The notes under the pieces are model-generated. The model searched no databases. It was not told the origin of the DNA and saw only the letters and a program-made list of their open reading frames with translations. From Escherichia coli (lineage in GTDB: Bacteria > Pseudomonadota > Gammaproteobacteria > Enterobacterales > Enterobacteriaceae): a stretch of 64,000 bases of DNA. Shown here one piece after another: positions 61,106 through 61,559 of the stretch. Position numbers and translations under genes: made by a program. Position 1 is the first letter of the stretch. Each line of letters starts with the position of its first letter. The stretch is taken from the NCBI RefSeq assembly GCF_003334785.1, contig NZ_QOWV01000007.1, one strand, 5' to 3'.

Positions 61106-61546
61106 GTAGCCGCATCCGGTATGTAACGCCTGATGCGACGCTGACGCGTCTTATCTGGCCTACACGCTGCGATTTTGTAGGCCGGATAAGCAAAGCGCAT
61201 CCGGCATTCAACGCCTGATGCGACGCTGGCGCGTCTTATCAGGCCTACGCGCTGCGATTTTGTAGGCCGGATAAGCAAAGCGCATCCGGCATTCAACGCC
61301 TGATGCGACGCTGGCGCGTCTTATCAGGCCTACGCGCTGCGATTTTGTAGGCCGGATAAGCAAAGCGCATCCGGCATTCAACGCCTGATGCGACGCTGGC
61401 GCGTCTTATCAGGCCTACGCGCTGCGATTTTGTAGGCCGGATAAGCAAAGCGCATCCGGCATTCAACGCCTGATGCGACGCTGGCGCGTCTTATCAGGCC
61501 TACACGCTGCGATTTTGTAGGCCGGATAAGCAAAGCGCATCCGGCA
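61106..61546. repeat. tandem BIME array: five ~85-bp units, each a pair of inverted REP palindromes
   Basis: Marker GCGATTTTGTAGGCCGGATAAG recurs at 61169, 61254, 61339, 61424 and 61509 (period exactly 85 bp); the three internal units are identical, the first and last carry a few substitutions. Confidence 0.9.
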
Positions 61547-61559
61547 CGAAGGAGTCAAC

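Follow-up and report, generated by a model that had tools for sequence, protein, structure and literature searches.

A five-unit BIME-2 allele in the araA-araD spacer of a K-12-type Escherichia coli genome

BIME-2 elements of Escherichia coli are defined as z2 and y REPs in inverse orientation that are separated by short linkers and present in multiple tandem copies, whereas BIME-1 elements are single-copy pairs of a z1 and a y REP with a long L linker, frequently with an IHF site (Ton-Hoang et al., 2012, PMC3333891). The closest described relative of the array reported here is the BIME-2 between araD and araA of MG1655/W3110 (66566-66813), at which three gyrase cleavage sites were mapped with ciprofloxacin and three with rifampicin plus ciprofloxacin (Sutormin et al., 2018, PMC6379681 Table DS3); the same table records two cuts at araD-araA in Espeli & Boccard 1997. 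In general, z2 REPs are cleaved by gyrase far less often than y REPs, and gyrase sites in BIME-2 elements are transcription-independent (Sutormin et al., 2018, PMC6379681). The same locus has served as a substrate for TnpA-REP: the araD-A BIME oligonucleotides B315 and B316 are cleaved in vitro at a site in the iREP and a site in the linker, and the enzyme recombines araD-A oligonucleotides into longer products with one additional REP, which has been proposed as a route of BIME amplification (PMC3333891). BIME-2 copy number differs between strains (PMC3333891, citing Bachellier 1997). A further BIME-2, REP325/naRNA1-6 (yjdM-yjdN), is relevant for comparison, as binding of HU by naRNA4 and condensation of the nucleoid and of DNA were shown only for REP325 RNA (PMC4550694). 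The literature thus already covers the element, its class, gyrase cleavage, in vitro processing by TnpA-REP and variable copy number; the five-unit length itself appears to have gone unremarked in the searchable papers.

The window analyzed here is a stretch of E. coli DNA of 64,000 nucleotides, and the spacer between its araA and araD genes measures 454 bp from the end of the araA ORF to the araD ATG (Table 1). The upstream gene is identical in sequence to the 1503-nt araA annotated as WP_000151748.1 in Stbl4 and MG1655, and araD is annotated as WP_000888666.1 in loci identical to that of the window. Tandem Repeats Finder resolved a single array in the spacer (period 85, 98% matches, indels 0, score 823), and a second repeat search, which returned 181-nt copies stepping by 85 nt, agreed on the register. 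The 85-bp unit is composed, in order, of a z2 iREP, a 13-nt linker (GCGCTGCGATTTT), a y REP and a 7-nt linker (ATTCAAC). The z2 REP ends in CTAC and the y REP begins with GTAG, and the two lie in opposite orientation and alternate along the array. On the plus strand of the array, the z2 REP 36-mer GCCTGATGCGACGCTGGCGCGTCTTATCAGGCCTAC and the 29-nt y REP were each found five times, relative to zero occurrences in shuffled sequence. Units 2, 3 and 4 (61196-61450) are 100% identical to one another, while unit 1 has six differing positions and unit 5 has one (G to A, CTACGCG/CTACACG). A first-pass annotation of the window, made from the letters alone, had described a spacer of this length, built from five head-to-tail units of 85 bp that each pair oppositely oriented REPs, with three identical inner units; each of these statements was borne out, with z2 and y REPs alternating, five of each, and the identity of units 2-4 fits the recent expansion that the annotation had proposed.

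Table 1. Positions of the araA-araD spacer features in the window
Feature	Position	Strand	Remarks
araA (L-arabinose isomerase) CDS	59603-61105	+	TAA stop codon at 61103-61105
araA-araD intercistronic spacer	61106-61559	+	part of the araBAD mRNA
y REP remnant (GTAG + CCGCATCCGG; GTAGCCGCATCCGG)	61106-61119	+	directly 3' of the araA stop codon; in every allele compared
BIME-2 array	61111-61546	+	5.1 copies of the 85-bp unit
z2 REP 1	61128-61163	+	inverted orientation; 2 mismatches relative to the inner copies
z2 REPs 2-5	61213-61248, 61298-61333, 61383-61418, 61468-61503	+	identical 36-mers
y REPs 1-5 (GTAGGCCGGATAAGCAAAGCGCATCCGGC)	61177-61205, 61262-61290, 61347-61375, 61432-61460, 61517-61545	+	identical
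y-linker-z2 pairs matching Rfam naRNA4 (RF02564)	61180-61245, 61265-61330, 61350-61415, 61435-61500	+	four pairs
Extra 170 bp (two units) relative to MG1655, DH1 and W3110	61281-61450	+	register arbitrary, because units 2-4 are identical
araD Shine-Dalgarno sequence (AAGGAG)	61549-61554	+	3 nt past the last y REP; spaced 5 nt from the ATG; same despite the expansion
araD (L-ribulose-5-phosphate 4-epimerase)	61560-62255	+	231-aa ORF
Ladder of six TTG-start ORFs	61056-61684	-	51-73 aa; spurious

Across the 64 kb of the window, the sole other tandem repeat lies at 1411-2225 (303 bp, 2.7 copies, 80% identity); in position and period it matches the three lipoyl domains of aceF, an expected repeat rather than an anomaly. 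Just 3' of araD and before polB, a palindrome at 62286-62312 with a 10-bp stem (AAACCAGGCT...AGCCTGGTTT) is terminator-like on the minus strand only. The array also gives rise to the ladder of minus-strand ORFs listed in Table 1. The ORFs at 61208-61381 and 61293-61466, each of 57 aa with a TTG start, are the two near-identical artefactual ORFs to which the first-pass annotation had drawn attention; they exist as ORFs, their translations are identical, and they belong to the repeat-made ladder of six. None of the six was annotated in any of the RefSeq records inspected, and coding potential was rejected for them as products of the repeat.

The araA-araD array is a BIME-2, a known element of E. 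coli. Its y and z2 REPs alternate in inverted orientation over 5.1 tandem copies with linkers of 13 and 7 nt, it is entirely extragenic, with the araA stop codon on one side and the araD Shine-Dalgarno sequence on the other, and its copy number is variable, with alleles of one, two, three, four and five units at araA-araD among 5,426 genomes. It shares with BIME-1/RIB-RIP elements the inverted REP pairs, the extragenic position and the fact of being transcribed, but differs from them in that those elements hold a single z1 and y pair around a long L linker with an IHF site, whereas the ara array is a tandem of z2 and y REPs. Membership of the BIME-1/RIB class was accordingly rejected, given the z2 and y REPs, the 13- and 7-nt linkers, the tandem copies and the lack of a match to the IHF consensus WATCARNNNNTTR within 61106-61559; the nearest matches to this consensus are at 56653 and 63919. 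The first-pass annotation had credited such arrays with binding both IHF and gyrase. Because the array is of the BIME-2 class and the IHF consensus is absent from it, IHF binding is not supported, while the gyrase part of the statement agrees with the literature, in which the three-unit araD-araA allele is tabled as a BIME-2 with three cleavage sites (PMC6379681 Table DS3). A second REP cluster is present in the window at 16340-16520, where y-like REPs (GTCGGATGCGGCG...) accompany a z2 REP (16429-16464, minus strand). This cluster is RIB-like, and its linker has an IHF consensus (TATCAATGAGTTA) at 16407-16419; judged by these motifs, it would be the kind of BIME that binds IHF, unlike the ara array.

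Comparison with REP325 places the ara array within the same broad type. Both loci consist of tandem Y-linker-Z2 units that are transcribed in the sense of the upstream gene, both are matched by the Rfam naRNA4 model, and both vary in copy number between strains; the reverse complement of the ara z2 REP differs from the REP325 z2 REP by one base. The unit of REP325 is nevertheless 100 bp, relative to 85 bp in the ara array, its linkers and its y REP both being longer. The four naRNA4 matches in the window, all on the sense strand and spanning the full length of the model, scored 60.2 bits, just above the gathering score (59.5), whereas true REP325 units score 95-111 bits. Two naRNA4 matches were found at araA-araD of MG1655, and the model also matches a Y-Z2 pair near phnD with 69 bits. 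Since the scores at the ara array are marginal, we read these matches as a reflection of BIME-2 architecture, in agreement with the assignment to that class, and not as evidence for naRNA4 RNA.

We compared the spacer with those of other E. coli genomes. In NC_000913.3, araD (65855-66550) and araA (66835-68337) leave a spacer of 284 bp with three units, and the same length is found in another MG1655 assembly, in DH1 and in the BL21(DE3) reference (NC_012971.2). The first-pass annotation had given a spacer of about 284 bp and about three units for MG1655, had deduced two additional units in the window, and had noted that a K-12 reference spacer of 454 bp would undo the claim; the lengths in MG1655 and DH1 settle this in its favor. 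Relative to the K-12 element, the window retains the same locus, flanks, z2 and y REPs and linkers, and differs in having five units rather than three, since the inner CTACGCGCTG-type unit is present three times instead of once (+170 bp). Outside the array, the 7-kb context (araB, araA, araD, polB) is free of mismatches to MG1655 in 5,741 nt of flank, made up of the 3,300 nt that end with the araA stop codon and 2,441 nt on the right, and it is likewise identical to DH1. The window is a K-12 derivative; in 25 kb of sequence upstream, many phylogroup A genomes match it at 100% identity. Spacers of 369 bp with four units were found in XL1-Blue, GM4792, two wild isolates and one BL21(DE3) assembly, and spacers of 454 bp with five units, identical to that of the window, in Stbl4, XL10-Gold and a record labelled 'TOP10' (CP080620). 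Wild strains carry alleles of 114 bp with one unit and 199 bp with two units, and the series 114, 199, 284, 369 and 454 bp proceeds in exact 85-bp steps.

Some wild strains depart from this series with spacers of 168 or 423 bp, which comprise one or four units, respectively, together with a G/C-rich palindromic insert. This insert of approximately 54 bp (TTTTCCCCCTCGCCCCTTTGGGGAGAGGGCCGGGGTGAGGGGAAA), which we take to be boxC-like, separates the last y REP from the ribosome-binding site of araD in about one quarter of the sampled genomes. In strain IH5 (NZ_CP168269.1, 1436-1710), rhaM-rhaD is found directly upstream of araD, with the junction inside a hybrid BIME: at GTAGGCC/ATTTTGTAGGCCGGATAAG, rhaA-rhaD-type REPs join the last ara unit. 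The arrangement points to either a large inversion or a misassembly, and both of its breakpoints would lie in BIMEs.

To count units in 5,426 complete E. coli genomes, BLAST was run with a synthetic 10-unit query under strict E-value cut-offs, and the bit scores predicted for K-12 units (453 for three, 610 for four) agreed with the BLAST output. Query coverage is unfit for such counts, because overlapping pieces are merged and a one-unit genome 'covers' 100% of a five-unit query. At least three units were present in 2,026 of the 5,426 genomes, at least four in 15 and exactly five in three (Stbl4, XL10-Gold and 'TOP10'), and none of the 5,426 had more than five. All of the longer arrays inspected are at araA-araD. 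A systematic sample of the ranking (n=57) contained 22 three-unit alleles, 14 two-unit alleles, 14 one-unit alleles with the insert and seven with one unit. From these counts, the five-unit allele is the longest known at araA-araD and very rare. Length variation of this kind is ordinary for BIME-2 elements: REP325, which has 5.8 copies of its 100-bp unit in K-12 (NC_000913.3 4325742-4326398), exceeds the K-12 copy number in 132 of the 5,426 genomes, at about 6.8 to 8.8 copies, and two wild strains, Combat13F7 and VTB96935v, contain a perfect match (100% identity) to a seven-unit REP325 allele simulated from K-12 sequence.

Three sets of records deserve description in their own right. NZ_CP080620.1 is labelled TOP10, yet its araB, araA and araD genes are intact, in a genome of only 4.51 Mb. 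This is at odds with the Δ(ara-leu)7697 genotype of TOP10/DH10B, as a true TOP10 should be without araBAD; the label is probably wrong, and the strain a relative of Stbl4 or XL10-Gold. In the Stbl4 record (NZ_CP081009.1), the ara operon (0.70 Mb) and adeD-rph-pyrE-waa (1.04-1.09 Mb) are much nearer to each other than in MG1655, and tandem repeats are absent from 1040000-1089999 (adeD-rfaD). Such spacing implies that the chromosome was extensively rearranged or lost a segment, or that the assembly is faulty. Four units (369 bp) are present in BL21(DE3) NZ_CP081489.1 and in BL21-RIPL, relative to three in the BL21(DE3) reference NC_012971.2, and taken at face value this BL21 sub-line would be a second laboratory lineage with an expansion of one unit.

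The 454-bp spacer is predicted to be strongly structured as RNA, with -229.7 kcal/mol (z = -7.6), relative to -139.3 kcal/mol for the three-unit spacer. Neither a promoter consensus nor an intrinsic terminator consensus was found inside the array, and a reading of it as an internal promoter or an intrinsic terminator was rejected on that ground. REP hairpins stabilize upstream mRNA and can attenuate transcription, and they lower translation if placed no more than 15 nt past the stop codon (PMC12306157). The first complete REP, a z2 REP, starts at 61128, 22 nt past the araA stop codon. In the predicted minimum-free-energy fold, the arm of the y REP remnant pairs with the 5' arm of this z2 REP, and the alternative hairpin that results starts 6 nt past the stop codon; it is identical across alleles, and this stop-proximal feature is therefore unaffected by the expansion. 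The expanded element is expected to behave as its counterparts in other strains do. At the DNA level, the array would act as a strong, transcription-independent gyrase site that is cut mainly at the y REPs, with about five cleavage sites predicted for the five-unit allele relative to three. At the level of the araBAD mRNA, the run of stable hairpins may delay the 3'-to-5' decay of the araBA segment that precedes it, and it may attenuate read-through into araD. Because no allele differs in the context next to the stop codon or next to the Shine-Dalgarno sequence, we expect the two extra units to have little if any effect on phenotype; they are probably selectively neutral or, at most, of small quantitative effect.

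Six of the 15 records with at least four units have near-consecutive accessions and locus-tag prefixes (CP080620, CP081007-9, CP081489 and CP083273), and from these close numbers the three five-unit records, the XL1-Blue record and the two BL21 records probably come from one submitter, which leaves the five-unit count without independent laboratory confirmation. All six are commercial laboratory strains whose canonical references carry three units, and the apparent mislabelling of the 'TOP10' record, with its intact araBAD, and the unusual large-scale gene order of the Stbl4 record would also be in keeping with strains that truly have three units and a single pipeline that over-counted the 85-bp units. 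We nonetheless regard such an artefact as unlikely. Counts within the batch vary along strain relationships (XL1-Blue four, XL10-Gold and Stbl4 five, BL21 four), a pattern that over-counting would hardly produce, and four-unit alleles were reported from unrelated laboratories (GM4792, JX21CE35, FACU 2024, 33F4/32F4/33E, TB06052 and PT62/LP5-1). In addition, no assembly of the batch is among the records with a REP325 array enlarged by one unit, which argues against a general inflation of BIME arrays, and single long reads easily span an array of 454 bp.

The explanation that we favor, and hold to be probable, is that the window carries a known BIME-2 in a five-unit allele that arose by recent, stepwise gain through repeat misalignment in K-12 cloning strains and is probably neutral. 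The extra units repeat the inner unit exactly and would have been gained recently, one by one, as perfect repeats misaligned; replication slippage and unequal sister-chromatid exchange are the candidate routes, and both can be RecA-independent. Strain genotypes would order the lineage from DH1 with three units through XL1-Blue with four to XL10-Gold and Stbl4 with five. XL1-Blue and XL10-Gold are recA1 gyrA96 by genotype, and DH1, with three units, has the same markers, so that a RecA-independent route is likely if the events fell in the recA1 lineage. The recA1 genotype, which removes RecA-dependent unequal crossing-over, would also suit an expansion made by the TnpA-REP/RAYT tyrosine transposase, which would cut and rejoin single-stranded BIME DNA in place of passive slippage or unequal exchange, and the K-12 enzyme does cleave B315/B316 and join longer products (PMC3333891). 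That activity, however, was shown in vitro only, and we consider this route improbable. Slippage needs no enzyme of this kind: between perfect 85-bp tandem repeats, RecA-independent slippage gives exact whole-unit duplications. Because the units are identical, no junction separates slippage from the TnpA-REP route. A bolder version, in which BIME-2 arrays grow actively over laboratory time scales (three to four to five units in the recA1 gyrA96 pedigree, three to four in BL21) and the window holds a possible first in vivo trace of amplification driven by TnpA-REP or associated with gyrase, and not of slippage, is in our view a long shot. Least of all do we expect that the extra units were selected, be it for the expression of araD relative to araA, for local supercoiling through gyrase sites or for the supply of a naRNA4-like HU-binding RNA, which we deem highly improbable. 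The sharp stop at three units (2,026 genomes with at least three, 15 with at least four) hints at a length constraint, but a handful of ancestral alleles passed on clonally, with a low mutation rate, could explain this cut-off equally well. Every added unit does bring one y REP, the preferred gyrase cut, and one naRNA4-type pair; yet the naRNA4 matches barely clear the model's threshold, no phenotype is known, and neither the stop-proximal structure nor the Shine-Dalgarno context of araD is altered.

The biological weight of the finding is small: the allele is a real but ordinary length variant of a well-characterized BIME-2. In practical terms, the 170-bp difference is a cheap PCR marker to distinguish the XL1-Blue/XL10-Gold/Stbl4 lineage from MG1655, W3110, DH1 and K-12 stocks of the DH5-alpha type, and primers or recombineering arms based on the MG1655 araBAD region will be an imperfect fit for these hosts. 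The series of one to five units on otherwise identical flanks also constitutes isogenic-like material with which BIME-2 copy number can be related to gyrase cleavage and to the araA:araD ratio.
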